The notes beneath the pieces are model-generated. The model did not search any database and was not told the DNA's origin. It saw only the letters and a list, made by a program, of their open reading frames with translations. Shown here in pieces: positions 3,362 through 53,785 of a stretch of DNA of 64,000 bases. The translations under genes and the position numbers were made by a program. Every line of letters starts with the position of its first letter. The stretch's first letter is position 1. Location of the stretch: NCBI GenBank assembly GCA_050952545.1, contig JBMNLD010000003.1:225683-289682 (forward strand). The letters run 5' to 3'. This DNA comes from Christensenellales bacterium. Its GTDB lineage: Bacteria > Bacillota > Clostridia > Christensenellales > CAZKXV01.

Positions 3362-5853
3362 CAGAATCTCCCGTGGCTTTCTCTCGCGATAATTTCATCC
3401 TGTAATTCCCTGCCTATGCTCGTAAAGTACGCGTTATAGCCCGTTACTCTTACGAGCAGATGCCTGAATTCGGACGGATGTTTCTGCGCTTCTTTCAACA
3501 CTTTGGGGTCAAGGATGTTAATCTGGAGCGCCGTGCCGCCGTTCTCGATATAACCTTTTAAGAAAGACTTGAATTTCTGCTTATGGTCGCTTGATTTGAC
3601 GAGAGCGGTATTAAATGTGATCGTATGGCTTGCGCCGTTCGGTAGGTTGTTGAGATAATCGAGATAATCGCCTTTTTCGCTCTTGCCGCCGAGCACCGTA
3701 CCCACGGAATTGCTGTTAGCCGTCGGCCCGTTGATGTCCGCGCCGTTGGACGGGCAAATCGCGTTGGACAGGAACTGACCCTTGCATCTGCCGTTGGGGC
3801 TTGCGTTCAGGATATATCCCGAGCCGATCCAGTAATTCCAGCTGAGCATGCCCGGTCTGAACTGCCTGTCAGTGGATTGGGTCTTGTATTTCCATACCTC
3901 GGATGTCCATAAATCCATTACTTTCCTGCCCATCTCGTCCGCCTCTTTGTCGTCTCTGCCGTATTTCGGAGCGCGATTTAACGCCTTTGCCTGCAAGACC
4001 TCGTAGCCTTTCCAGTTCGCTTTTAACGCCTCGACGAGCTCGGTTAAAGTGCATTCCTTATTGTCATATACGAGATATTTTACCGCAAGCAGAGAATCCA
4101 CCGTAGTCGCGAATGTAACTCCCTCAATCGTCGTAAACGACAATTCCGCGCCGCCCTCGGTGATATCCGCGCATTTTTCGATACAGCCTTTGACAAGCAG
4201 CGACAGATACGGCGTAGGATTGTATTTCGCCCTGATAGCTTCGCTTAATTCGTAATTGTCGACGATTTTCTTAACGATGAATTTCATCTGTTCTGCAAAC
4301 GCTTGATAGAATTTGTCAAAAGTATCAAGTTCGCTAAGTTCGCCCGTAACTGGTCCCTCCTGCCTGATTTCGGACAGTTTGCCCGTCATCTCGTCTTCGT
4401 AGGGGAGCAAATCCTTACCGTTATTGAAAACGAGTTCGAGCGCCTTTAACAAATTAAGGTTATTGTCCACGGTGCCCGAGCGGTCATTGCCGACCATTGT
4501 ATTCTCAAGGCACCCTACGGACGCGTAATCGTGTACATTGTCGATATTTATCAGATGAGTAACATTAGCCTCTTTGGCTTCTCTTAGCATACCCGCCATA
4601 GAGCGTTCGTCGAAATTAAGCAGAAAGGGCGCGCCCTGGCTCACCGAAATCATATCCACGACCTTATCCAGCAGCTTGTCGGGGGAATTCCTGTGCAGCC
4701 TGACATTGGGCTTAGGCTCCAATATCGGGCTCATGTCGTTTATCACATCGAGCAGCAGATAAGTGAGATCGTTGGTCATATCCGCGCCGCCTTTGCCCAT
4801 GCCCGACAGATTAAAGAGCTGTCCGAATCCCGCCGTAATGCCCTGATTGCCGCCCACTCTGATTTGCGCGTCGTACGCCGTATTGCAGTGCACCCAGAAG
4901 CATCCGAGTATTTCTTTCATGAACTCCCTGCTCATCCCGTTTTTTACGGAAATTTCATAATAGGGGAACAGATACTGGTCAAGCCTGCCGAAAGATACGC
5001 CAGGACCGGGGTAATTCTCGTCCGCCATAACGAGCATATGAGTAAACCACAGCGACTGCACCGCCTGCCAGAAGTCCTTGGCGCCGCGCCACGGCACGGT
5101 CTCAAGATTGACGCTCATAGTAATAAGCTCTCTCTTGCGTACTTCGTCCTGTTCTTTCGCCGCCAGCTCTTTAAGCAATTCGGAATATTTCTCAGCGAGC
5201 TCCTTGGGCATTTCAGCCGCGGTCATCATAGCGCGTATGACCGAGCCCTTATGCCCCTTTTTCTCTTTATCCGTTAAGCTGTCGTAGCGCTTGGTAAGTT
5301 CGGCGTAAACGCCCTCGAAACCCTCTCTTAAAATCTTCGCGTAATCGGATATCAAGTGTCCGCTCGTTGCGCCGCTGTTGCCGTAACCGTGCTCGTAGAG
5401 GAATTTCATATTTTCCCGCGCTTTCTCGACGAGCTTCTTTCTCTTTCTCGCCTCGCTCTTGTTAAGGCACATCGACGCCTGCATATTGAAATTCGAGCCC
5501 GCGATTAAATCGCCCTTTAAGACATATTTCGGCAGATGATTAACAACCGTTTCTTTTATAAACAGCGCGCGCCTTTCAATCAGCGACTTCTTGAAGAAAT
5601 CCTCGCCCATATCGATATTTTCAGCCGCCTGAACGCAGGACGAGCCGAATGTGACTAGAAAGGAATACATCTCGGGCACTATGTAATACGATATCTCGTT
5701 AAACTGCGTATCCCAGGGCGTTCCCGTCGAATAAACGCTGTATTCGTTATTCCATTCTCTTTTTATGCCCTCGAAATAATAATCTCTTAAATATCTCACT
5801 CTTTCCGAGAGATTGCCGGGCTGCTTAATTGCTTCTTTAGGATTAACAGCCAT
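3361..5853 (-). CDS. Glycyl radical enzyme, PFL superfamily, eliminase/dehydratase-like, substrate unknown
   Basis: 830 aa. C-terminal glycyl radical motif 'VRVTGYNAYF'. Cys loop 'SVGCLENTMVG' (GCxE type). AGGAGG RBS. Confidence 0.9.
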   Translation of the reverse strand: MAVNPKEAIKQPGNLSERVRYLRDYYFEGIKREWNNEYSVYSTGTPWDTQFNEISYYIVPEMYSFLVTFGSSCVQAAENIDMGEDFFKKSLIERRALFIKETVVNHLPKYVLKGDLIAGSNFNMQASMCLNKSEARKRKKLVEKARENMKFLYEHGYGNSGATSGHLISDYAKILREGFEGVYAELTKRYDSLTDKEKKGHKGSVIRAMMTAAEMPKELAEKYSELLKELAAKEQDEVRKRELITMSVNLETVPWRGAKDFWQAVQSLWFTHMLVMADENYPGPGVSFGRLDQYLFPYYEISVKNGMSREFMKEILGCFWVHCNTAYDAQIRVGGNQGITAGFGQLFNLSGMGKGGADMTNDLTYLLLDVINDMSPILEPKPNVRLHRNSPDKLLDKVVDMISVSQGAPFLLNFDERSMAGMLREAKEANVTHLINIDNVHDYASVGCLENTMVGNDRSGTVDNNLNLLKALELVFNNGKDLLPYEDEMTGKLSEIRQEGPVTGELSELDTFDKFYQAFAEQMKFIVKKIVDNYELSEAIRAKYNPTPYLSLLVKGCIEKCADITEGGAELSFTTIEGVTFATTVDSLLAVKYLVYDNKECTLTELVEALKANWKGYEVLQAKALNRAPKYGRDDKEADEMGRKVMDLWTSEVWKYKTQSTDRQFRPGMLSWNYWIGSGYILNASPNGRCKGQFLSNAICPSNGADINGPTANSNSVGTVLGGKSEKGDYLDYLNNLPNGASHTITFNTALVKSSDHKQKFKSFLKGYIENGGTALQINILDPKVLKEAQKHPSEFRHLLVRVTGYNAYFTSIGRELQDEIIARESHGRF

Positions 5854-6689: not shown

Positions 6690-7961
6690 TTATCTTGCGA
6701 GTTGTTCTCTTTCGGGGCCTACCCCGACATATTTTACGGGCACTTTTACCGTATCTTCTATCAGTCTGATGTAGTTTAGGGCGTTTTCGGGCAGCTCGGA
6801 GATTTTTCGGATTTTAGTAGTGTCGCACAACCAGCCCGGGATAGTCTTATATACGCATTCCACACGCTCGAGCTCTCTTGTCGAGGGCATATAGTCTATC
6901 ACCTTGCCGTCCAGCTTATACGCGACACAGACTTTTAGTTCATTGAAGTTGTCGAGCTTGTCGATTTTCATCAGCGCAATGTCCGTAAAGCCGTTGATTG
7001 TCGCCGCGTATTTGACCGCGACTAAATCCGGCCATCCTAGCCTTCTCGCCCTGCCTGTTCTCGCGCCGTATTCGTCGTCCGCCTTCTCGCCCGTGCCGCG
7101 GAAGCGCTCCGCTTCGTCGTCTGGCATCTCGGTCGGAAACGGGCCTTTGCCCACCGCGCTCGAAAACGCTTTCATAACGCCCGTGATATCCGTAATCTTG
7201 TGGTGCGGGAATCCGCCGCCTACCGCCGCGTACGCCGCCACGGGATTAGAGGATGTGACATAGGGATAGGTGCCGAGGTCGAGGTCCTTCATCGCGCCGA
7301 GCTGACCCTCAAAGATGATATTTTTCCCTTGGTCAATCGCCTTGTTTACAAAGGACACAGGCTCGACTATCCGCATAGATAAAACCTCCGCCCACTTCGA
7401 TATTTTAGCTTTCAGCTCATCAATATCGCACTCCGCCGCGCCCTGGGCTACGAGTTCGCGGTTAATAGTGTCGAGGATGATACTCAGCCTGTCATATGCG
7501 TATTCAAGGTCAAGCAAGTCCTCGAATCTTAACGCGAGCCGCCTTGCCCTGTCCTGATACGCGTAAGCAATGCCTCTTTTCGTGCTGCCGATTGAGCCGG
7601 TGCCCGATTCTTTGATGTTGTCGAATGTTATATGATGGGGCATAAGGATTGTCGCCTTAGACGAAATCAGCACATTGTTCACATCCACCCCGGCGCCGCT
7701 TATCATTTCGAGTTCTTTAAGCAGTTCGTCCGGATTGATGACCATTCCGGTATTACAAAGGCATATGCAGCCTTTCTTGAATACGCCGCTCGGAATCAAA
7801 TGCGTCTTGAAAGTGCCGTATTCGTTAATCACGGTATGCCCCGCATTGTCTCCGCCCTGAAAGCGCACCACCATATCCGCGGTCTCGGCAAAATAATCCA
7901 CCATTTTGCCCTTTCCCTCATCGCCCCATTGCGCTCCGACAATAACTCTTACTGATGACAT
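6690..7961 (-). CDS. purA: Adenylosuccinate synthase
   Basis: 'GAQWGDEGKGK' P-loop. 423 aa. Confidence 0.95.
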   Translation of the reverse strand: MSSVRVIVGAQWGDEGKGKMVDYFAETADMVVRFQGGDNAGHTVINEYGTFKTHLIPSGVFKKGCICLCNTGMVINPDELLKELEMISGAGVDVNNVLISSKATILMPHHITFDNIKESGTGSIGSTKRGIAYAYQDRARRLALRFEDLLDLEYAYDRLSIILDTINRELVAQGAAECDIDELKAKISKWAEVLSMRIVEPVSFVNKAIDQGKNIIFEGQLGAMKDLDLGTYPYVTSSNPVAAYAAVGGGFPHHKITDITGVMKAFSSAVGKGPFPTEMPDDEAERFRGTGEKADDEYGARTGRARRLGWPDLVAVKYAATINGFTDIALMKIDKLDNFNELKVCVAYKLDGKVIDYMPSTRELERVECVYKTIPGWLCDTTKIRKISELPENALNYIRLIEDTVKVPVKYVGVGPEREQLAR

Positions 7962-7963
7962 TG

Positions 7964-9370
7964 TTATTCCATCCTTAATTTGTCTATTTTATTTATGCCG
8001 ACCTCGATCGGATATTTGCCTGAAAAGCAGCCAGTGCAAATGTCGAGATTTGCCCCGCCGCACATCTCGCGTAATTCCTCTATGCCTAGATACTCCACGC
8101 TGTCGCAGCCTAGGATGGCGGCAATCATCTCCTGGGTGTTTTTCGCGCCGATAAGCTCCCCCTCGTTCTGAATGTCTATTCCGAAATAGCAGGCGAACTT
8201 AACGGGAGGGGATGTAATGCGCATATGCACTTCTCTGGCGCCCGCCTCGTAAAGCAGGGATATAATATTCTTGCAGGTCGTGCCTCTGACGATAGAATCG
8301 TCAATAAGTATTATGCGCTTGCCCCGGACATTGTGCTTTATTGCCGCGAGCTTTATCTTGACCATATTTTCTCTCTCGGATTGCTGGGGCTGGATGAATG
8401 TCCTGCCTATATAGCGGTTTTTAGACAGCACCTCGGTAAAGGGTATGCCCGAATAATCTGCATACGCCTGGGCCGCAACCGCCGCAGTGTCCGGTACGGA
8501 CGAGACAATATCCGCTTCTACCGAATGGTTTTTAGCGAGCAACTCTCCCGCCTTTCTCCTTGCGTTATAGACCGCGAGTCCGTCAATTACCGAATCCGTT
8601 CTCGCAAAATATACGAATTCGAACGAGCAAAGCCCCTTTGGCCTTTCGCCGTCTATGTTGTATGAATGTATGCCCGTAATGTCGACAATCAGAATCTCGC
8701 CCGGTCTGATATCCCTTGTAAACGCCGCGCCTACGACATCAAGAGCGGGAGTCTCGCTCGCGATGACTACGGTGCCGTCGGGCTTTTCGCCCATGACGAG
8801 CGGTCTTATACCCGACTGGTCTCTGACAGCTATCAGGCGGTTTTTATCCATCATGGTGAAGGCGTAAGAACCTTTAAGGTCTTTCGCGGCGAAACTTATC
8901 GCCTTTACAATATCGCCGTCGTAATAGAGATTAATGAGCGCCGCGATAATCTCGGAATCAATTGTCGTCTGCAGGAGAATTTTCTTATCGGTAAGCCGTT
9001 CGCGCACCTCGCCGCTGTTAAAAATATTGCCGTTATGCCCGAGCGCGATTTCGCCGCTTCTGCCCGATATCAGCAGGGGCTGGGAATTGACTATATTCGA
9101 GCTTCCCGTAGTCGAATATCTGACATGGCCTATCGCGATGTTGCTTTTCGGAAAGCTTTTCAGGATATTATCGGACATCACCTGGGGCACCATACCCATA
9201 TTCTTGTAGCAGCTCACTCCGTCCGCGGTCGCGTACGCAAGCCCGGCGCTCTCCTCGCCTCTGTGTTGAAGCGCGAAAAGCCCTAACTGTACGTCATAGA
9301 CTATATCGTAAGGTGTCTTGCTGTAAATACCGAATACGCCGCAGGCTTCTTTGATTTTATCCGATGTCAT
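7964..9370 (-). CDS. purF: Amidophosphoribosyltransferase
   Basis: N-terminal 'ACGVFGI' Ntn-Cys. PRTase 'IILIDDSIVRGTT'. C-terminal Fe-S cysteines. Confidence 0.95.
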   Translation of the reverse strand: MTSDKIKEACGVFGIYSKTPYDIVYDVQLGLFALQHRGEESAGLAYATADGVSCYKNMGMVPQVMSDNILKSFPKSNIAIGHVRYSTTGSSNIVNSQPLLISGRSGEIALGHNGNIFNSGEVRERLTDKKILLQTTIDSEIIAALINLYYDGDIVKAISFAAKDLKGSYAFTMMDKNRLIAVRDQSGIRPLVMGEKPDGTVVIASETPALDVVGAAFTRDIRPGEILIVDITGIHSYNIDGERPKGLCSFEFVYFARTDSVIDGLAVYNARRKAGELLAKNHSVEADIVSSVPDTAAVAAQAYADYSGIPFTEVLSKNRYIGRTFIQPQQSERENMVKIKLAAIKHNVRGKRIILIDDSIVRGTTCKNIISLLYEAGAREVHMRITSPPVKFACYFGIDIQNEGELIGAKNTQEMIAAILGCDSVEYLGIEELREMCGGANLDICTGCFSGKYPIEVGINKIDKLRME

Positions 9371-9562
9371 ATATTATCCTCTTAACCGATTGCAAAAACA
9401 TTATAACAAATAAATGCTTAAAAGTCAGTTAAAAGTAATATGTTTTTTCGGTCGACTCCTCTTCCCTCGCGTATACCGCTCTGCTTATTTGTCTGTTATG
9501 CTGTTATAATAATTAATATATAATCAAGCGATTACGATAACAACTCTATTTGAAACGATAAA

Positions 9563-9850
9563 GTAGCTGTAACGAGCAGATTTTTCGATGATAGCGCCCC
9601 AATCTGGTTCCTTATAATATCTCCGGCGCCTCTTAATAGACTGACCCGGACAATAGTCCGACCAAATGCTACATAGTAGCATTTGCGACTGGTCTAAGAT
9701 AAGGAGCAAGCGTCTGATAATAAGAGATTAGGTGTTAACCTAATCTCGTAAAAGAAGCCGCATTGCGACAAGGGTTCTGAGTGGGGCGCCGGCGCGGAAA
9801 AGATGCCGCTTGAGCGATGACAACTTCCGCTGTCATTACGGACAGCGGAA
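9563..9850. ncRNA. Unclassified hairpin-rich RNA-like element, copy A (long form)
   Basis: Its 5' ~50 nt and 3' ~75 nt blocks are shared with 41014-41153. The extra core has perfect hairpins CGGAC-AATA-GTCCG, AAATGCTAC-ATA-GTAGCATTT and AGATTAGGT-GTTA-ACCTAATCT. Terminal hairpin is TTCCGCTGTC-ATTACG-GACAGCGGAA. Strand is unresolved. Confidence 0.4.
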
Positions 9851-11026
9851 TTATAATATTTTATCCATTCTATCTATGGATTCGAGGGTGTTTTCGTATG
9901 TGTTGAACGCAGTCAATCTGAAATAGCCCTCGCCCGCCTTGCCAAAACCCTCGCCGGGCGTGCCCGCGACATAGGCTTTTTCAAGCAGGTAATCAAAAAA
10001 CTGCCATGAATTCATTTTATCCGGACATTCGAGCCAGATATACGGTGAGTTCTTGCCGCCCGTATGGTAAATGCCTTTAGTATCAAAGAACTTTGAGAGC
10101 GCAAGCGCGTTCGTCATATAATAGTCGATATTTTTCCTGACCTCGACAAGCCCCTCAGGCGAAAACGCCGCTTCCGCGCCTCTTTGAATTACATAGGCTA
10201 CGCCGTTGAATTTGGTCGTCTGGCGTCTTAACCACATTTTATTTACGCTGACTCCGTCGTAATTCAGCTCATCGGGAATTACGGTATAAGAGCACCTTAC
10301 GCCCGTAAAGCCCGCTGTCTTTGAGAACGAGCACAGCTCTATAGCGCATTTTCTCGCGCCTTCTAGCTCGAATATCGACCGCGGCAACGCGGGGTCTTTA
10401 ATATACGCCTCGTAAGCGGCGTCGTACAGGATTATCGCGTTATTGGAAATTGCGTAATTTATCCATTTCTTCAGTTCGCCTTTAGTATACACCGCGCCGG
10501 TGGGATTGTTAGGCGAGCAAAGGTAAATTATATCCGCCCTACCGCTCAGACTGTCGGGCATCGCCTTGAAATCCCTGCCTCCCCGCGCGAAAATTATCTT
10601 CCTGTTAAGCATTAAATTGCTGTCTAGATATACGGGATATACGGGGTCCGAGATGCATATTACATTGTCGTCGGAGAAAATGTCCGTGATATTAGCCGAA
10701 TCGCTCTTCGCGCCTTCGCTTACGAACACCTCGTTGCTTTTTATCAAGACGCCGATTTCAGCGTAATAATTTCTAATCGCGTCTATTAAAAAGTCATATC
10801 CCTGATATGGGCCGTAACCGCGAAAACTCTCCTTTACGCCCATCTCGTCAGCAGCTTTTTTCATAGCCTCGACTACGGGTGCGACAATAGGCAAAGTTAC
10901 ATCGCCGATTCCCATTTTTATCACCTTTTTGTCGGGATTTAAGGCAATGAATTTCTCGATTCTCGACGCGGTTTCGGCAAATAAATAATTCTCTTTCAAT
11001 AAACTGTAATTAGCGTTTAGTTTCAT
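9851..11026 (-). CDS. dapL: LL-diaminopimelate aminotransferase
   Basis: 'MKLNANYSLLKENYLFAE...KMGIGDVTLP' N-terminus typical of DapL. Start moved to the ATG at 11026, which has an AGGAGA RBS. Confidence 0.8.
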   Translation of the reverse strand: MKLNANYSLLKENYLFAETASRIEKFIALNPDKKVIKMGIGDVTLPIVAPVVEAMKKAADEMGVKESFRGYGPYQGYDFLIDAIRNYYAEIGVLIKSNEVFVSEGAKSDSANITDIFSDDNVICISDPVYPVYLDSNLMLNRKIIFARGGRDFKAMPDSLSGRADIIYLCSPNNPTGAVYTKGELKKWINYAISNNAIILYDAAYEAYIKDPALPRSIFELEGARKCAIELCSFSKTAGFTGVRCSYTVIPDELNYDGVSVNKMWLRRQTTKFNGVAYVIQRGAEAAFSPEGLVEVRKNIDYYMTNALALSKFFDTKGIYHTGGKNSPYIWLECPDKMNSWQFFDYLLEKAYVAGTPGEGFGKAGEGYFRLTAFNTYENTLESIDRMDKIL

Positions 11027-11052
11027 TTTCCGTCTCCTTAGTTTTTCTGGGC

Positions 11053-14000
11053 TCATTTGCCTCCGTATTCATCCAGAGCAAGCGTTGTCAGGTCTTTATC
11101 GCTTCTCGTCATAATGAGCGCTCTGATAAGCGCCTGCGCAGTGTCTATAGAAGTCAGGCAGGGCACGCCGTTATCCGCGGCGAGCCGTCTTAGCTTAAAT
11201 CCGAATCTCTTGCTGTTACGACCCTTTGTAGGGGTGTTGATGATATATTGCACTTTATGGTTATCAATAAGATTTTTTACGCCCTCGTATGCGTCGATTA
11301 CGCGTTTTACGGGGATAACGCCTTCGATAAGGTATTTTTCCAGATACGCCGCCGTGCCCTCGGTCGCGTATATCGTAAAGCCGAATTTCTTAAACGCGAC
11401 GGCTACGGGCAGTATTTCCCATTTGAATTTCTCGGAAATCGATAAGAATACGCCGCCGCTGAAAGATATCTTCATATTGCTTCCGAACAAGCCCTTTAAC
11501 AGCGCTTCGCCGATATCGGAAGACACTCCGAGCACCTCGCCCGTGGATTTCATTTCGGGCGACAAAGAAAAATCCATTCCCGTAATTTTTTCGTTAGAAA
11601 ATACCGGCACCTTTACCGCGTATACTCCCGCCTTTCTGTATAGTCCGTCGCCGTAACCCATGGAAAGCAGTTTTTCGCCCATAGCGCACCTCGTCGCGAG
11701 CTCAACCATAGGCACGCCCGTAACCTTGCTGATGTAGGGCACCGTTCTGGACGACCTAGGATTGACCTCAATTACGAAAATCTCAGAATCCTTTAAGATG
11801 TATTGGATATTGACCAGTCCCACCGTATTCAGGTTCAAAGCGATATCTCTTGTAATTCTTATGATGTTTTCTTCGTCAGCCGGAGTAACATTTATCGGCG
11901 GATATACGGCGATTGAGTCTCCGCTGTGTATGCCCGTTCTTTCAATATGCTCCATGATGCCGGGAATAAGGATATTGCTGCCGTCTGAAATCGCGTCTAC
12001 CTCGAGCTCTCTGCCCATTATATACTTGTCGATTAATATCGGGTGCTCCTGTTCGTCCAGGTTTATCAATGACATATACATCTTAAGGTCGGTAACATCG
12101 TAGCAGATTTCCATTCCTTGCCCGCCGAGAACATACGAGGGACGCACGAGCACGGGAAAACCCAGCTTCTCGCTCGCCTTCACCGCGTCATAGACCGTAA
12201 AGACCGTCACGCCCTCGGGACGCGTAACGCCGATTCTCTCAAGCAGTTTATCAAAAAGCTCCCTGTCTTCCGCGGCGTCGATATCCTCTAAAGAAGTGCC
12301 CAGAATCTTATAGCCGTAATTCTTCACCGCCTGTGCGAGCTTAATCGCCGTCTGTCCTCCGAACTGGACAACCACCGCCTCGGGCTTCTCGATATCTAAT
12401 ACATTATACACATCTTCGGGCGTTAAAGGCTCGAAATACAGCCTGTCAGACACATCAAAATCCGTGCTGACCGTCTCGGGATTGTTGTTGATAATGACGG
12501 CGTCGTAGCCTTTTTTCTTAATCGCCCTGATGCAGTGAACGGAGCAATAATCGAATTCTATTCCCTGACCTATTCTGATTGGACCGCTGCCGAGTACGAG
12601 AATTGTCTTTCTCGGGCTTTTTATATGTTCGCTTTCCTTTCTGTAAGTCGAATAATAATACGGACTGACCGCGGTAAATTCCGCGGCGCAGGTATCGACC
12701 ATATTAAATGCCGGCAAGATTTTGTTATCCTTTCTCATGCGCCTGACGCTCATCATATCCGAGCCGGTAAACTTCGCTATCGCCTCGTCCGAGAAGCCGT
12801 ATTTCTTGGCTTTTTTAAGCGTTTCGGCGTCAATGCATTTGTCTGAAATTAATTTGCTCTCCAGCTCGACGATGTTTCTTATTCTCCTTAAGAACCATTT
12901 GTCTATCCGGGTTATATCATATATTGACTCGATATCCTTACCGCGGCGCATTAGCTCGGCAATTACAAATATTCTGTAATCATCAGCAGGCATAAGCCTT
13001 GTCAGCAGTTCATCGTCGGAAATTCCCTCAAGGGTATCGTCTTTAAGGCAATTTTTACCGATTTCTAGAGACCTGACCGCCTTCATCAACGCCTGCTCAA
13101 AATTCTCCGCTATGCTCATCACTTCGCCCGTCGCTTTCATTTTGGTGCCGAGCGTTCTGTTTGCCTGGGTGAACTTATCGAACGGCCACCTCGGGAATTT
13201 TGCGACGATATAATCAATCGCGGGCTCGTGCGCGGCGCAGGTCTTGCCCGTCACTTTGTTTTCAATCTCGTCAAGATTATAACCTATGGCAATCAGCGTA
13301 GCGACTTTGGCTATCGGATAACCCGTCGCCTTGGACGCGAGCGCGGACGAGCGGCTCACTCTTGGATTGACTTCAATCAAAGCGTATTCGGACGAATCCG
13401 TCTTGAGCGCGAATTGCACATTGCAGCCGCCTCTTACGCCGAGCGCCTTGATGATCTTAATAGCCGCGGACCTCAGCATATGGTTTTCCTTATCCGTTAA
13501 GGTCTGCACGGGCGCGACTACGATGCTGTCGCCCGTATGTATTCCCACGGGATCGACATTCTCCATGCTGCAAATCGTGATGCAATTGCCGAGATTGTCG
13601 CGCATCACCTCGTATTCAATCTCTTTCCATCCCTGAACGGATTTCTCGATTAAACATTGATGCACGCGGCTGACTTCAAGCCCTACGGTCGCGATTTCCT
13701 TTAACTCTTCCTTGTTATTGGCAAATCCGCCGCCCGTGCCTCCGAGAGTATATGCGGGTCTTACTATCAGCGGATAACCGACTTTTTTGCCAAATTCAAG
13801 CGCGGTCTTGACATCGTTTACGATAATGCTGTCAATTACGGGCTCGCCGATATCGAGCATTGTCTGCTTAAAGGTCTCGCGGTCTTCGGCGCGCTTAATT
13901 GTCTCCACGCTTGTGCCGAGCAGGCGCACTCCGAATTGGTCGAGAAAACCCGATTCCGCAAGCTCGGACGCAAGATTTAATCCCGTCTGTCCGCCCAGCG

Positions 14001-14265
14001 TCGGCAGTATGCTGTCCGGTCTTTCTTTAATGATGATATTCTTCAGCACTTCGATTGTAAGAGGCTCGATATAAATCTTGTCAGCCATCTCCCTATCCGT
14101 CATAATCGTCGCCGGATTGGAGTTTGCTAAAATGACATTGAGCCCCTCCGCTTTCAAAACCCTGCACGCCTGCGTGCCTGCGTAGTCAAATTCCGCCGCC
14201 TGACCTATGACTATCGGGCCGCTGCCTATAACAAGTACTTTTCTTATCGTCGTATCCTTGGGCAT
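11053..14265 (-). CDS. carB: Carbamoyl-phosphate synthase large subunit
   Basis: 1070 aa with duplicated ATP-grasp halves. N-terminus 'VLVIGSGPIVIGQAAEFDYAGTQA'. Confidence 0.95.
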   Translation of the reverse strand: MPKDTTIRKVLVIGSGPIVIGQAAEFDYAGTQACRVLKAEGLNVILANSNPATIMTDREMADKIYIEPLTIEVLKNIIIKERPDSILPTLGGQTGLNLASELAESGFLDQFGVRLLGTSVETIKRAEDRETFKQTMLDIGEPVIDSIIVNDVKTALEFGKKVGYPLIVRPAYTLGGTGGGFANNKEELKEIATVGLEVSRVHQCLIEKSVQGWKEIEYEVMRDNLGNCITICSMENVDPVGIHTGDSIVVAPVQTLTDKENHMLRSAAIKIIKALGVRGGCNVQFALKTDSSEYALIEVNPRVSRSSALASKATGYPIAKVATLIAIGYNLDEIENKVTGKTCAAHEPAIDYIVAKFPRWPFDKFTQANRTLGTKMKATGEVMSIAENFEQALMKAVRSLEIGKNCLKDDTLEGISDDELLTRLMPADDYRIFVIAELMRRGKDIESIYDITRIDKWFLRRIRNIVELESKLISDKCIDAETLKKAKKYGFSDEAIAKFTGSDMMSVRRMRKDNKILPAFNMVDTCAAEFTAVSPYYYSTYRKESEHIKSPRKTILVLGSGPIRIGQGIEFDYCSVHCIRAIKKKGYDAVIINNNPETVSTDFDVSDRLYFEPLTPEDVYNVLDIEKPEAVVVQFGGQTAIKLAQAVKNYGYKILGTSLEDIDAAEDRELFDKLLERIGVTRPEGVTVFTVYDAVKASEKLGFPVLVRPSYVLGGQGMEICYDVTDLKMYMSLINLDEQEHPILIDKYIMGRELEVDAISDGSNILIPGIMEHIERTGIHSGDSIAVYPPINVTPADEENIIRITRDIALNLNTVGLVNIQYILKDSEIFVIEVNPRSSRTVPYISKVTGVPMVELATRCAMGEKLLSMGYGDGLYRKAGVYAVKVPVFSNEKITGMDFSLSPEMKSTGEVLGVSSDIGEALLKGLFGSNMKISFSGGVFLSISEKFKWEILPVAVAFKKFGFTIYATEGTAAYLEKYLIEGVIPVKRVIDAYEGVKNLIDNHKVQYIINTPTKGRNSKRFGFKLRRLAADNGVPCLTSIDTAQALIRALIMTRSDKDLTTLALDEYGGK

Positions 14266-40919: not shown

Positions 40920-41013
40920 AAAAGCAATAAGAAATAATATTCTATTATAAATGTTTTTACTTTTCCTATTATAAATAAACCTATAAAATTATAGCGTTTA
41001 TAAGTATACTATG

Positions 41014-41153
41014 GTAGCTATAACATATGGATTTTTCGATAATAGCACCACAATCAGGTTCTCCATAGTATTATTACATGGAGGTTCCGATGGGGCGCTG
41101 GCGCGGAAAAGACACCGTTAGAGCGGATAAACTTCCGCCAGAAGACGGCGGAA
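41014..41153. ncRNA. Unclassified hairpin-rich RNA-like element, copy B (short form)
   Basis: Shares the 5' block (GTAGCT.TAAC...ATTTTTCGAT.ATAGC.CC.CAATC.GGTTC) and the 3' block (TGGGGCGC.GGCGCGGAAAAGA..CCG.T.GAGCG...AACTTCCGC) with 9563-9850. A small CTCCAT...ATGGAG hairpin replaces the ~190 nt core of copy A. Confidence 0.4.
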
Positions 41154-41181
41154 AAAAAGGCAATCTTCATTGATTGCCTTT
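41152..41181 (-). terminator. Intrinsic terminator of the 1204 aa phosphoesterase gene
   Basis: Minus strand AAAGGCAATC-AATGAA-GATTGCCTTT followed by TTTTT. Confidence 0.7.
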
Positions 41182-41209
41182 ATTGTTATCCTAATCCGAT
41201 AATGGAATA

Positions 41210-44200
41210 TTAAGCCGCTCTTTTCTTTTTGAGATGTATTACAGTTATCGCGATGCCCCCTGACAGCACTGCCGAGGAGCCGACGACTACAGCTATAATC
41301 GCGATAATATTGTTTTTAGGCTTTAATTCATTGATTTCGCCCGTCTCGAGATCATATTCGTACGCTTCGTAATAGAGCTCTTCTCCGTCGTAATAGAGCC
41401 TGCCGAATACGGGTCTTGAAAGCGTCGGAGCGTGGAGTTCTTCGCCGTAACGCACGGGAATATCGGGATTGTCTTGCCAGTTATAGAACTTATCGCCTAT
41501 TGTGCCCAGCGTAACAAATAATATGCCTTTGTCGCCTATCTTGGATTTATAGGCGCCTTTTCTGGCTATTTCGCCCTCGCCGTCGAGGTAGTAGGTCGTA
41601 GAATATGTATGGTCGTGTCCGCCCAGTACGAGATGCACGCCGTTATTATAAAAAATCGGGGTTAATTGCTTTCTCATCTCGATGACATCGATATCAAAGG
41701 AATGCGAGCCCGAAGAATAAAGGCTCTTGTGCATAATAACGACTTTATGCGCTTTGTCGGTATTTGCTAAATCTTCTTCAAGCCACCGGACCTGCGCCGC
41801 GCTCAACTTGTTATTCTCGAGGTCGTTTGTGTTTAATACCGTGAAATGCACGCCCGAATAATCAAAAGAATAATACAATCCCGTCGCCGCGTTCTGCTCC
41901 GGCGCGGACACATTGTAATACAGCAGACTGTTGTTATACGGCGTAATCACGACATCGGCAGATGAGGGATTAAAGCTGTCGTCTACGACAAATGAGCTGG
42001 ATTCATGATTGCCTGTGGCGGTTACAAAAGTCGTATTCGCGAAAAATTCCGGACAGGTATTGAGTAAATAACGGTAATGCGCCATATTCTTGGAATTGTC
42101 CACATTGTCGCCCATGCTAATCACAAAATCGTAACCGTTAATAAACACGCTCTCTATATTATTTAATACCTCGAACACCTCGTCGTACGAGCTCTGCGTA
42201 TAGCCCTGCGGGTCGGCAAAGAGAAGGATATCGAATTCCTTGTTGTCGTCGGGCGCGGTTGCCGTGGAATATACGGGGCTCCAGTAGCCGCCCATACCGA
42301 ATCCGCTTGCGCCGACCTGATAATAATATTCGGTGCCGGGCTTTAAGTTCTTTAATTCAACGCTGTGCCTGCCTATCTCGCCCGTGCCGTATGTCGCGAA
42401 TACGCCGACATCGATCTGCGCGTATGTATGCGCGTATACGGCGAATTCGCCCGAAACCGTTACGGCGCCCGTCATATCCTCCTTCTCACTGTATCTTATC
42501 TCGGTAGCGTTTACGCGCTTATCCGTAAACCATACGAAATTCTTATCCGTTCTGGGGTCTTCGCCGAAAGACACTGTTATCATAGAGGGTAATTTGCCGT
42601 TGGCAACAGTCGGATTGTCTTCTCTTGCTATATCAATAAATGTGAACTCGTCTCCGGCGCTTAAAGTAATCGGTATCGGGTCATCATAACTGACATTAGG
42701 GCTTTCGTCAATTGCGAAAGCGAGCAGGGCGTTAGCTGCGATTTGTCCGAGACCAGTCGAAAAACTCTTGGTCAAATAGCTATTCAGCATTGTGTCGACG
42801 AAATCCAGCGCCGTTCCCGTGCCTATATCCAGTCCTATATCGAGAAAACTCAACGCGGCGCGGACGAGTTTGTCCAAGTTTACGCTCGCGACATTAAAAT
42901 TCTCTATTCCGAGGACTCCCCCCAGGCTGTTAAGCAGGTTCATGTCATTAGCGCTTAAACCCTCCGATAAATTCATTTCCCGGGTCAATAATCCGGCAAG
43001 TATTTTATATACGCCTTTGTCTTTATCGAGAAGAATTTCAAGCAGGGATTCTACGACGCTGCCGTTTCTTAAATTGTCGATTCCCTCCCGTATATGAGAC
43101 GGCAATTGATCAATGCTTGTGTACAGCGCGCCGTCGATGTGCGCAAATAAACAGAAGAAAAATACTTCGATTATACTATCGTCCCGCGAGGTTATCGATA
43201 ATCCCCTTACTTCCCCTACGAGTTCTTCTAAAAATCCGAAAAGTTTATTCTCGCCGTTCGCGCAAATCGGATTGTCTCCGCCGTAAGTGTAATCGTCAAG
43301 CACTTTAGTTTCTATCTCGGAGATTAGATTGTCTACTATAATGTCAATGCTGTTTTTGATGCTGCCTAAGGGTAAGCCCATTACTTTGTCCGGGATATAG
43401 CCCTTGACCATACTTAGGAGCTCGGGCACAATTTCGGGCGAGAGGTATTTGACCATATAGTTGTCGATGGCATTTTCATAAATCCTGATTTTCGCGTATT
43501 CGCTGATGTCCGTACATTTCTTGCCCTCGATTAAATGGTCTACGCGGTTTTCTGTAAAGAATTCATCGTCAAGGTACTCGTTGTCGATAATGTAGCCGAA
43601 ATCAACTTCCTTGGTAAGCTCCAGCATCGTCGTCAATTTCTCGGCGTAAGTATCGCCGATGTAGCCGTAGGAGATATCGGAGTATCTAACGCCTCCCGCA
43701 TAGGACGAGGACGAGCCCGTTTCGATATCCGTTATCTGATTGTTATTAAAGCTGATATGGTGCGAAATGCTGTTGGCGTGCATATGACCCGAGAATGAAT
43801 ATCTGACGCCCAGGTCGGCAAAAAAGTCCGCGACCGTTACCCAGTCTTCAACCGTAAATCCCGCCATCATCGTATCCTCTAAAGGATGTTGCGGCACAAT
43901 ATTGTGGTGGAGAACGATGATTTTCGTATAATTGTCGTCGCTATCCGCGCAATCGGCGAAAAAGTCAAAAATATTAGCGGTAAAAGTCGCCGACAATAAA
44001 TGTCCGTCTTCGGCGTTAGAGTCCTCCTCGTCAATCATCATAAATGATACGCCTTTATCCGATGTCACATAATAGCTTAATTCGCCGTGACCGTAATCTT
44101 TTAACGAGTTGTAATTTTCTTTTCTTGCATAGAGCCATTCTATATCGAGGTTAGCGGCATTATTGGAATGTATGTACGCGTCGTCGTCCTTATCGTAGGG

Positions 44201-53620: not shown

Positions 53621-53656
53621 AAAAAAAATGCTCTTTTTCAATGCGAAAAAGAGCAT
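53621..53656 (-). terminator. Leader intrinsic terminator (attenuator) immediately upstream of the ECF operon RBS
   Basis: Minus strand ATGCTCTTTTTC-GCATT-GAAAAAGAGCAT followed by 7 T. The competing hairpin GCGAAAAGG...CTTTTTCGC shares its 5' arm. Confidence 0.75.
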
Positions 53657-53749
53657 ATCCTTTTCGCAATGGAAGGTATATAGATTTCTCTTTATGCCCT
53701 GTCGTTCCTGCCTCCGTAGCGTTGCCTTAGGACGGCGGAATTCGGATAT
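53657..53749 (-). promoter_or_regulatory. Candidate riboswitch/leader sensor region, class not identified
   Basis: About 90 nt lie between the predicted TSS and the terminator. The region contains CCGCCGU...ACGGAGG pairing and GGAACGACAGGGCAUAAAG. Its position fits a cis-regulatory RNA. Confidence 0.35.
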
Positions 53750-53755
53750 AAAAAT

Positions 53756-53785
53756 ATTATATCATTAAATTACGGCTGCGGTCAA
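53756..53785 (-). promoter_or_regulatory. Sigma-70-like promoter of the ECF operon
   Basis: Minus strand TTGACC (53785-53780), 18 nt spacer, TATAAT (53761-53756). Confidence 0.6.

Follow-up and report, generated by a model that had tools for sequence, protein, structure and literature searches.

The stretch of DNA analysed here, 64,000 nt from a Christensenellales bacterium (contig JBMNLD010000003.1, positions 225,683 to 289,682; hereafter the window), contains a run of biosynthetic genes on the minus strand. This run comprises carB (11053-14265), a dapL-like gene for an LL-diaminopimelate (LL-DAP)-type aminotransferase (9851-11056; aminotransferase class I/II in Pfam, LL-DAP aminotransferase according to the sources), purF (7964-9370; GATase and PRTase in Pfam) and purA (6690-7961). 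Between dapL and purF lies a gap of 480 nt (9371-9850), and positions 9563-9850 of this gap, read on the plus strand, hold the element studied here, designated L. It consists of a rod, an apical multi-hairpin insert and a 3′ hairpin, and its arms are homologous to those of two other sequences: S, a short form on the plus strand of the same window (41014-41153), and R1, at positions 3949-4097 of a related Christensenellales contig (L063). The element is real, non-coding and strongly structured; it represents the long form of a small family whose fold is supported by covariation, and it is not a riboswitch.

A preliminary description of this locus, made from the sequence letters, had read L as a long-form copy of a repeated RNA-like module. 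This was borne out, L being the core of S with an apical insertion of about 140 nt and the third, cross-species member showing compensatory pair changes. The recurrence of both flanks at 41014-41153 was likewise recovered: both arms of L are found again in S, with identities of 76% at 41014-41071 and 86% at 41091-41125 (nhmmer E 4.7e-4 and 1.9e-5, respectively). A 20-nt core shared by L and S occurs twice in the window versus 0.01 occurrences expected. S has the same rod, a 20-nt apical hairpin and a 3′ hairpin at 41133-41153, and was scored by the covariance model at 143.6 bits on the plus strand versus 26.2 bits on the minus strand. Relatives were reached by walking through the flanking proteins of the window, which have identical counterparts in an uncultured Christensenellales metagenome-assembled genome (MAG) and on several metagenome contigs from JGI and Logan. 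R1, on a contig with a TetR protein 69% identical to that of the window, matched S with an nhmmer E of 1.5e-6 and lies at a locus unrelated to the sites of L and S. As judged from sequence, L and S are paralogous copies and form, together with R1 in the related genome, a small family in two related uncultured gut-type Christensenellales bacteria. A strain variant of L was present in JGI contig Ga0591960_0028410 (L032), which corresponds to window positions 9471-9870; the long form accordingly exists in a second lineage, as read from that contig.

Against shuffled sequences, the plus-strand folds of L, S (including its terminator) and R1 had z-scores of -7.2, -6.6 and -9.4, respectively. For comparison of the three members, L (with the apical insert removed), S and R1 were placed in an alignment of 160 columns (A3), the consensus of which has 48 pairs. 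One rod architecture is common to all three and comprises, from the base upwards, P1, P2, a GA/GA loop, P3, P4, a GGUUC/GGUUC motif and an apical stem, followed by a separate 3′ hairpin. The core measures about 150 nt and the long form L 288 nt. At the base, the P1 5′ strand GCUGUAAC (9566-9573; columns 7-14) pairs with the 3′ strand GCUUGAGC (9808-9815; columns 108-115), the pairs in L being 9566-9568 with 9813-9815 and 9570-9573 with 9808-9811. S and R1 read UAGCUAUAAC/GUUAGAGC here. Within P1, GCU/AGC is invariant in L, S and R1; L has a weakened version of UAAC/GUUA, which S and R1 keep intact. P2 (9576-9578 with 9804-9806) contains two-sided changes, pair 18-105 being C-G in L versus U-A in S and R1, and pair 19-104 A-U in L versus G-C in the other two. 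It is followed by a 2x2 purine loop in which GA faces GA (9579-9580 with 9802-9803).

In P3, UUUUUCG (9581-9587) pairs with CGGAAAA (9795-9801). Its seven pairs are kept in all members, two of them varying via wobbles (U·G to U-A and C-G to U·G), so that the consensus reads UUUUUYG/CGRAAAA. Beyond an internal loop, P4 forms the middle of the rod, with the 5′ strand at 9594-9605, containing GCGCCCCA, paired to the 3′ strand at 9778-9789, containing UGGGGCGC. Six of the 12 pairs in P4 stay paired through two-sided changes, as in GCGCCCCAAUC/GAGUGGGGCGC of L versus AAGAAUA/UAUUCUU of R1. The preliminary description had seen GCGCCCCA (9594-9601) and TGGGGCGC (9782-9789) as the closure of the whole domain; the complementarity holds, but the segment is mid-rod, and the true closure is that of 9566-9573 with 9808-9815. 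In S this GCGCCCCA/TGGGGCGC segment carries two mismatches, and in R1 it is replaced by a wholly different sequence that is still paired. Above P4, a GGUUC on the 5′ side of the apical stem (9606-9610), identical in the three members, faces a second, equally invariant GGUUC on its 3′ side (9773-9777) as G-C, G·U, U×U, U·G and C-G.

The apical end varies in size: L has about 140 nt there, arranged in four hairpins, and S and R1 have about 20 nt each. A small apical hairpin, AUAGYAUURUURCAU, is common to S and R1, and in L its loop is interrupted by the 140-nt stretch. Homology of L to S and R1 ends at 9620 and resumes near 9759, which places the L-specific insert at 9621-9758. The domain from 9611 to 9772 folds on its own, with z-scores of -5.9 on the plus strand and -4.5 on the minus strand. 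Every hairpin reported earlier for this region was found in the sequence, within one or two bases of the position given. Three of them lie inside the insert, namely CGGAC-AATA-GTCCG (9647-9660), AAATGCTAC-ATA-GTAGCATTT (9664-9684) and (G)AGATTAGGT-GTTA-ACCTAATCT(C) (9724-9747), where they stand together with a 3- or 4-way junction. The local GCGG...CCGC hairpin (9794-9809), which had been reported with them, is not conserved in the family: it is absent in R1, and the nucleotides of its 3′ arm pair over a long range with UUUUUCG in all three members. This arm overlaps CGGAAAA at 9795-9801, and the hairpin competes with P3.

Outside the rod, a linker of 9-10 nt ending in AAC leads to the 3′ hairpin, UUCCGCUGUC-AUUACG-GACAGCGGAA (9825-9850). 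Its base, UUCCG/CGGAA, is invariant, and its distal pairs covary (columns 131-148, 132-147 and 135-144). This is the 10-bp terminal hairpin that had been described as abutting the dapL stop codon (9851-9853, minus strand), and the distance is indeed 0 nt.

Standard pairs make up 90.7% of the pair cells in A3; sliding the 3′ partners by 1-3 columns lowers this to 41-53%. Fourteen of the 48 consensus pairs change on both sides yet remain paired, and none of 500 shuffles reached any of five measures. Starting from the alignment alone, RNAalifold returned the same fold with 15 compensatory pairs. Pair swaps are clearest in P4 and are also seen in P2, the apical stem and the distal 3′ hairpin. Selection, as far as the compared sequences tell, acts on the fold: the helices change in sequence but stay paired, and the wobble and mismatch motifs are invariant. 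Since the apical loop of L tolerates a 140-nt multi-hairpin insertion, the conserved base and middle of the rod are likely the functional part.

No further copies besides L, S, R1 and strain duplicates were found by nhmmer, blastn and covariance-model searches over about 820 kb of sequence, and blastn against plasmids and phages gave no match. Scans of genome, metagenome and viral contigs with the 3′ core specific to L and S, GGGGCGCNGGCGCGGAAAAG(A), a pattern too species-specific for this use, returned only chance matches in GC-rich coding DNA of the 'GAGAEK' type. Viral contig searches with GATTTTTCGAT...GGCGCGGAAAAG, GTTAGAGCGG...AACTTCCG and TAGCTATAAC...GGTTC...GGTTC yielded no true homologue. 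A covariance-model match of 19.9 bits was obtained on the minus strand of a termite-gut Oscillospiraceae MAG (L024:3015-3140). The rod at this position shares the GAUUUUUCG/GGCGGAAAA pairing and the apical word GCAUUGCG, lacks GGUUC and the 3′ hairpin, and is followed by tandem GGGTTTTGCGGACGGGTGTG repeats; on these sequence features it could be a distant relative or a chance match, and it was treated as unproven.

The preliminary description had been unable to place the region in any RNA family. Rfam 15 at gathering thresholds, run over the whole window, likewise gave nothing at L or S. With E ≤ 10 and both strands, the interval 9300-9950 returned noise only (CssrB, 14.6 bits versus a gathering score of 76), and the interval 40920-41215 returned only miRNA and terminator fragments of at most 17 bits. 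By these comparisons the family is undescribed in Rfam 15 and matches, at gathering level, none of its models for the ykkC subtypes, purine, ZTP, T-box, 6S, SRP, Y-RNA-like, raiA, OLE, ROOL or GOLLD RNAs. ARAGORN detected no tRNA or tmRNA in the window. A tRNA-like identity was considered and rejected, the resemblance of UAGCU...AGAGCG and GGUUC to D and T arms being short and without acceptor and anticodon arms. Elsewhere in the window, the sole Rfam match at gathering level is a Moco (molybdenum cofactor) riboswitch at 53641-53759 on the minus strand (49.1 bits, E 1.1e-8), which lies upstream of a cluster with MobB, ThiF/ThiS-like, aldehyde ferredoxin oxidoreductase and ABC/ECF-type transporter genes.

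With purine, ZTP and ykkC riboswitches the element shares only its intergenic place next to purF. A purF leader or riboswitch of these kinds was rejected on three grounds. First, a purF promoter-like site, CTGACT-17-TATAAT with TG (9400-9428, minus strand), lies between the element and the purF start, downstream of the element, and leaves it outside a short purF 5′ untranslated region (UTR). Second, a relative with the same gene order (L055) has no element. Third, S and R1 do not lie beside pur genes. The resemblance to ykkC-type cores, already doubted when it was first remarked on, corresponds to no Rfam match on either strand. The possibilities that had been left open, a small RNA, a UTR element or a repeat resembling a miniature inverted-repeat transposable element (MITE), are hereby narrowed: a purF 5′UTR is excluded, and the others remain as readings of graded probability.

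The gap had been taken to be non-coding, and this was upheld for 9563-9850. Its sole open reading frame of at least 50 aa starts with TTG and spans 9524-9709 of the minus strand, and the small frames are unconserved in R1 and frameshifted in L032. Coding for short peptides, ...IAPQSGS* and WGAGAEK.PLER on the plus strand or YY.EPD.GAIIEKS on the minus strand, was considered and rejected; the frames of the two arms differ, start codons are missing and in-frame stops occur in S. The sequence of R1 is unrelated to the candidate reading frames of L and S, and the insertion and deletion in L032 destroy both frames. A six-frame 'protein' query against 5.8 billion proteins gave nothing at E ≤ 10. Substitutions between L and S fall nearly all at every third base (element positions 7, 16, 28, 34, 37, 43, 49 and 55) and would be synonymous in short frames (IAPQSGS and WGAGAEK.PLER). 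This period of three is seen in 9585-9620 and 9782-9817 compared with 41036-41071 and 41091-41126.

For the choice of strand, minimum free energies were compared. These amounted to -113.7 kcal/mol on the plus strand and -105.3 on the minus strand for L, -49.0 and -45.8 for S, and -66.6 and -44.5 for R1; the RNAalifold consensus gave -51.3 and -46.6, respectively. GGUUC/GGUUC pairs on the plus strand only. The plus strand is favoured because each of the three copies folds more stably on it, R1 by the widest margin, and because the GGUUC/GGUUC pairing exists only there. From these predicted folds, it is probably the active strand, antisense to carB-dapL-purF, an assignment made with modest confidence. 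The converse would be that the reverse complement serves as the structured 3′ end of the dapL mRNA (L) and the SpoIIE mRNA (R1), which it would stabilise or terminate. This is quite improbable. In its favour, the minus-strand gene's stop codon is separated from the hairpin start by 0-3 nt in L and R1, the minus-strand folds are also significant, the insert of L carries minus-strand terminator-like hairpins, and the A·C mismatches of the plus strand (6 cells) become G·U pairs. However, S lies beyond the strong terminator of the convergent gene itself, R1 loses 22 kcal/mol on the minus strand, GGUUC/GGUUC turns there into an unpaired GAACC/GAACC loop, and a U-tract following the hairpin on that strand is absent from every copy.

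Being antisense to the biosynthetic operon, L on the plus strand would have to be transcribed from a promoter of its own. At 9502-9510 on the plus strand, 53 nt upstream of L, stands a perfect extended -10 box, TGTTATAAT, which is kept in L032; it is a candidate promoter, and a chance occurrence is possible in the AT-rich DNA that surrounds it. The 10-bp 3′ hairpin of L is followed by the U-rich tail UUAUAAUAUUUUAU. Near S, a bidirectional intrinsic terminator is predicted at 41156-41181, between S and the convergent gene for a 1204-aa phosphoesterase; it belongs to the context and lies outside the family core.

All three copies adjoin the 3′ end of a convergent transcription unit: L lies 0 nt and R1 3 nt (SpoIIE) from the stop codon, and S is placed at the terminator U-tract. 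The corresponding sites in other lineages were found empty. In L055, the aminotransferase of which is 70% identical, the order carA-carB-aminotransferase-purF-purA is the same and the gap measures 149 nt, with no element. The TetR/phosphoesterase gap, which is the site of S, contains only the terminator in relatives L059 and L060, L059 having unrelated small repeats in addition. In the focal genome, the orthologue of the SpoIIE neighbour of R1 (59% identity) has a downstream gap of 83 nt and no element. As the relatives with empty sites are distant (59-75% protein identity), absence and loss of synteny are weak evidence for mobility, and the empty sites could not be aligned base by base, the relatives being too diverged.

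Among the unrelated small repeats is a GC-rich hairpin ending in CCCTACAA (e.g. GGCGGGAGCAGAGCCCCCGCCCTACAA), present at L059:3607-3634 and at L063:3726-3752 and 3785-3812. It occupies similar intergenic gaps, among them the one between TetR and phosphoesterase where S lies in the focal genome, and is absent from the window. In the same gap, L059:3635-3690 consists of the tandem arrays (TTTTTAG)x4 and then (TAATTTG)x4.

In assemblies from several samples, contigs break off within the element or precisely at it. Past dapL, such ends occur at 56, 90 (three times) and 160 nt; at S, they occur 3 nt into the element and in the apex. The independent Logan assemblies SRR23983917, SRR11702759 and SRR31066337 (L033, L035 and L058) all end at about 9760/9761, 90 nt past the aminotransferase gene. 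This shared stop, 2-3 nt from the right edge of the L insert, suggests a co-existing short-form allele or a second copy with the 3′ arm. In L032, the aminotransferase protein is the same as in the window, and the DNA shows no difference from this gene as far as 9686; beyond that point, and also in the region upstream of purF, divergence is about 10%. In the 5′ arm of the element, positions 9599 and 9605 are A and the apical stem has CCUGAU, states resembling those of S and R1; one nucleotide is deleted and one inserted in this arm. Both GTAGC words of L (9563-9567 and 9676-9680) read GCAGC in L032, and the loop ATA of the hairpin at 9664-9684 reads TAT. The pattern of divergence along this contig suggests a recombination junction inside the element.

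Bacterial MITEs are defined by features that include terminal inverted repeats and a target-site duplication, often TA (Delihas 2008; PMC2229807). They are also marked by numerous dispersed copies in a genome and by a cognate insertion sequence or transposase whose ends match. Like these, the element is small and non-coding, and its predicted transcript is a long stem-loop formed by pairing of its 5′ and 3′ parts. Terminal inverted repeats were sought by comparing the first 25 nt with the reverse complement of the last 25 nt, which gave 7/25 identities for L, 7/25 for S and 2/25 for R1; the inverted repeat is internal, as the rod, and the 3′ hairpin lies outside it. Regarding target-site duplication, no common word adjoins both boundaries in L, S or R1. 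Every copy starts with TA, and the 3′ junctions differ (TTATAA, AAAAAG and TAGCTA). On the points that the preliminary description had made decisive for its reading, the outcome was that an Rfam match is absent, that covariation is present and that the copies are not bounded by a target-site duplication. In R1, ATAGCTA stands at the 5′ end (L063:3949-3956) and again right after the 3′ hairpin (4097-4103), and the palindromic TAGCTA can pair; this repeat was not seen in L or S and may be a coincidence and not a target duplication. Neither the window nor its flanks of about 15 kb contain a transposase, integrase or reverse transcriptase according to Pfam.

Long and short forms of ERIC differ by internal insertions, and EFAR is another bacterial MITE-like repeat. 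ERIC/IRU, Correia/NEMIS and RUP are likewise small, non-coding and intergenic, lie next to gene ends and give long stem-loop transcripts (PMC2229807; PMC3733652). ERIC-type and MITE-like repeats differ in presence and absence between lineages and have reported roles in mRNA stability (PMC2229807; PMC3733652). A non-autonomous repeat of this kind at gene 3′ ends would be co-transcribed either way, and its stem-loop would act in cis as a transcript-end barrier or insulator; for L this would mean a position between carB-dapL and purF-purA, with the insert supplying U-tailed minus-strand hairpins. Such a repeat is the chief competing explanation, possible but rather unlikely. It accounts for two dispersed copies in the roughly 80 kb of genome examined and a third at an unrelated locus in a relative, for occupied sites that are all empty in other lineages, for contigs breaking at the element, for placement against a convergent stop codon (L and R1) or terminator U-tract (S), and for an internal insertion that sets the long form apart from the short, as in ERIC. 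Folding of the rod is also seen on the minus strand (z-scores of -5.7 for L, -4.8 for S and -6.4 for R1), and the L insert has two minus-strand terminator-like hairpins versus 0.5 expected. Elements of this description are reviewed by Delihas (PMC2229807).

From ERIC and MITE repeats, however, the element differs in several respects. It has neither inverted repeats at its termini nor flanking direct repeats, it carries an extra 3′ hairpin outside the rod, no transposase was found in the window or flanks, and its copy number in the sequence examined is low. Whole helices are replaced by compensatory changes around invariant wobble and mismatch motifs, unlike decaying copies of a master element, and the empty sites come from the distant relatives already mentioned. 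There is no sequence similarity, and the host belongs to the Christensenellales, not to the Proteobacteria or Bacilli. CIR repeats of Caulobacter and Brucella have a phylogenetically conserved RNA secondary structure and 'only partially resemble MITE characteristics' (PMC2229807); they consist of two arms and a linker with an exposed GANTC methylation motif, whereas the present element is one rod with a small 3′ hairpin and has no such motif. REP/REPIN sequences are palindromes of 20-40 bp with a conserved 5′ GTAG tag and high copy number, mobilised by RAYT (PMC3733652). This assignment was rejected: the element measures 140-290 nt, its 5′ tag is GTAG in L and S, ATAG in R1 and GCAG in L032, and no RAYT is encoded in the sequence examined.

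Integron attC sites have the R''/R' consensus RYYYAAC/GTTRRRY. The element resembles them in being an imperfect hairpin, placed directly after a stop codon, whose outer box is AAC...GTT and whose terminal structure varies. It is far more conserved in its interior (P3, GGUUC twice and the 3′ hairpin). It could be imagined that the element is a folded single-stranded DNA (ssDNA) recombination site, attC-like or of HUH type, recognised by a recombinase whose gene lies elsewhere in the genome. In S and R1 the outer helix, ...CTATAAC/GTTAGAG..., comes close to the attC consensus, from which it departs at three positions, and the mismatched hairpin, the very variable size of its terminal structure, the place right behind the stop codon and the strand-asymmetric fold are all in keeping with such a site. 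The outer boxes of L, in contrast, read CTGTAAC/GCTTGAG, with CTT and not GTT; integrase and cassette array are absent from the window and flanks, the neighbours being core biosynthetic genes; conservation extends far beyond the R box; and the 5′ GTAG tag of the REP type is not kept in R1 and L032. A site of this kind is hardly credible.

Another likeness is that to Y RNA and YrlA-type RNAs, which have a basal stem built from 5′ and 3′ parts with sequence-specific internal motifs, a variable distal module and paralogous copies. This is an analogy of architecture only; a Y-RNA-like Rfam match, an rsr/Ro gene in the window and a tRNA-like module are all lacking.

The reading put forward here, tentatively and at somewhat less than an even chance, is that of a lineage-restricted structured RNA with a rod of protein-binding type and a permissive apical site, probably expressed from the plus strand and spreading by duplication or mobilisation into gene 3′ ends. 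The plus-strand transcript would be a stand-alone small RNA or a ribonucleoprotein scaffold, the conserved rod would bind a protein partner, and duplication or mobilisation would carry new copies into convergent transcription units at their 3′ ends. The modular design, with an invariant non-Watson-Crick motif, freely changing helices and a permissive apex, makes the element a candidate protein-binding scaffold.

Several observations weigh against this structured-RNA reading. The comparison covers no more than three members plus a strain variant, and these same sequences served to derive the structure. A3 was hand-tuned, with two gap positions fixed by N placeholders, so that the covariation statistics are optimistic. 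The 5′ arm of L032 has five changes that are uncompensated in its L-type 3′ arm. The strand call is weak, the variable positions giving 9 G·U versus 6 A·C cells, and S folds about equally on both strands. R1 has no predicted promoter or terminator, and R1 and S have no U-tail directly after the 3′ hairpin. Finally, the emptiness of all three sites in other lineages and the breaking of contigs inside or at the element would fit a mobile DNA repeat equally well.

A more far-reaching proposal, decidedly improbable, holds that the family constitutes a new Christensenellales class of ribonucleoprotein or mobile small RNA. The rod would be a platform for a dedicated protein encoded elsewhere, made up of the tandem G·A loop, the U/A helix, the symmetric GGUUC/GGUUC wobble motif and the UUCCG/CGGAA hairpin; the apical loop would be a permissive site for additional RNA modules, of which the 140-nt insert of L with its four hairpins would be an example; and an RNA or ssDNA form would be copied to convergent 3′ ends without terminal inverted repeats or target-site duplication.

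Taken alone and with three members, the element is one more orphan motif of the sort that comparative screens yield by the hundreds. If confirmed, it would be a new structured non-coding RNA or repeat family from the Christensenellales, an order that is abundant, almost uncultured and unexplored with regard to RNA. Its modular design is unusual, combining an invariant GGUUC/GGUUC motif and covarying helices with an apical site that takes up a 140-nt insert, and its strict placement at convergent gene 3′ ends could show how small elements settle in compact bacterial genomes.

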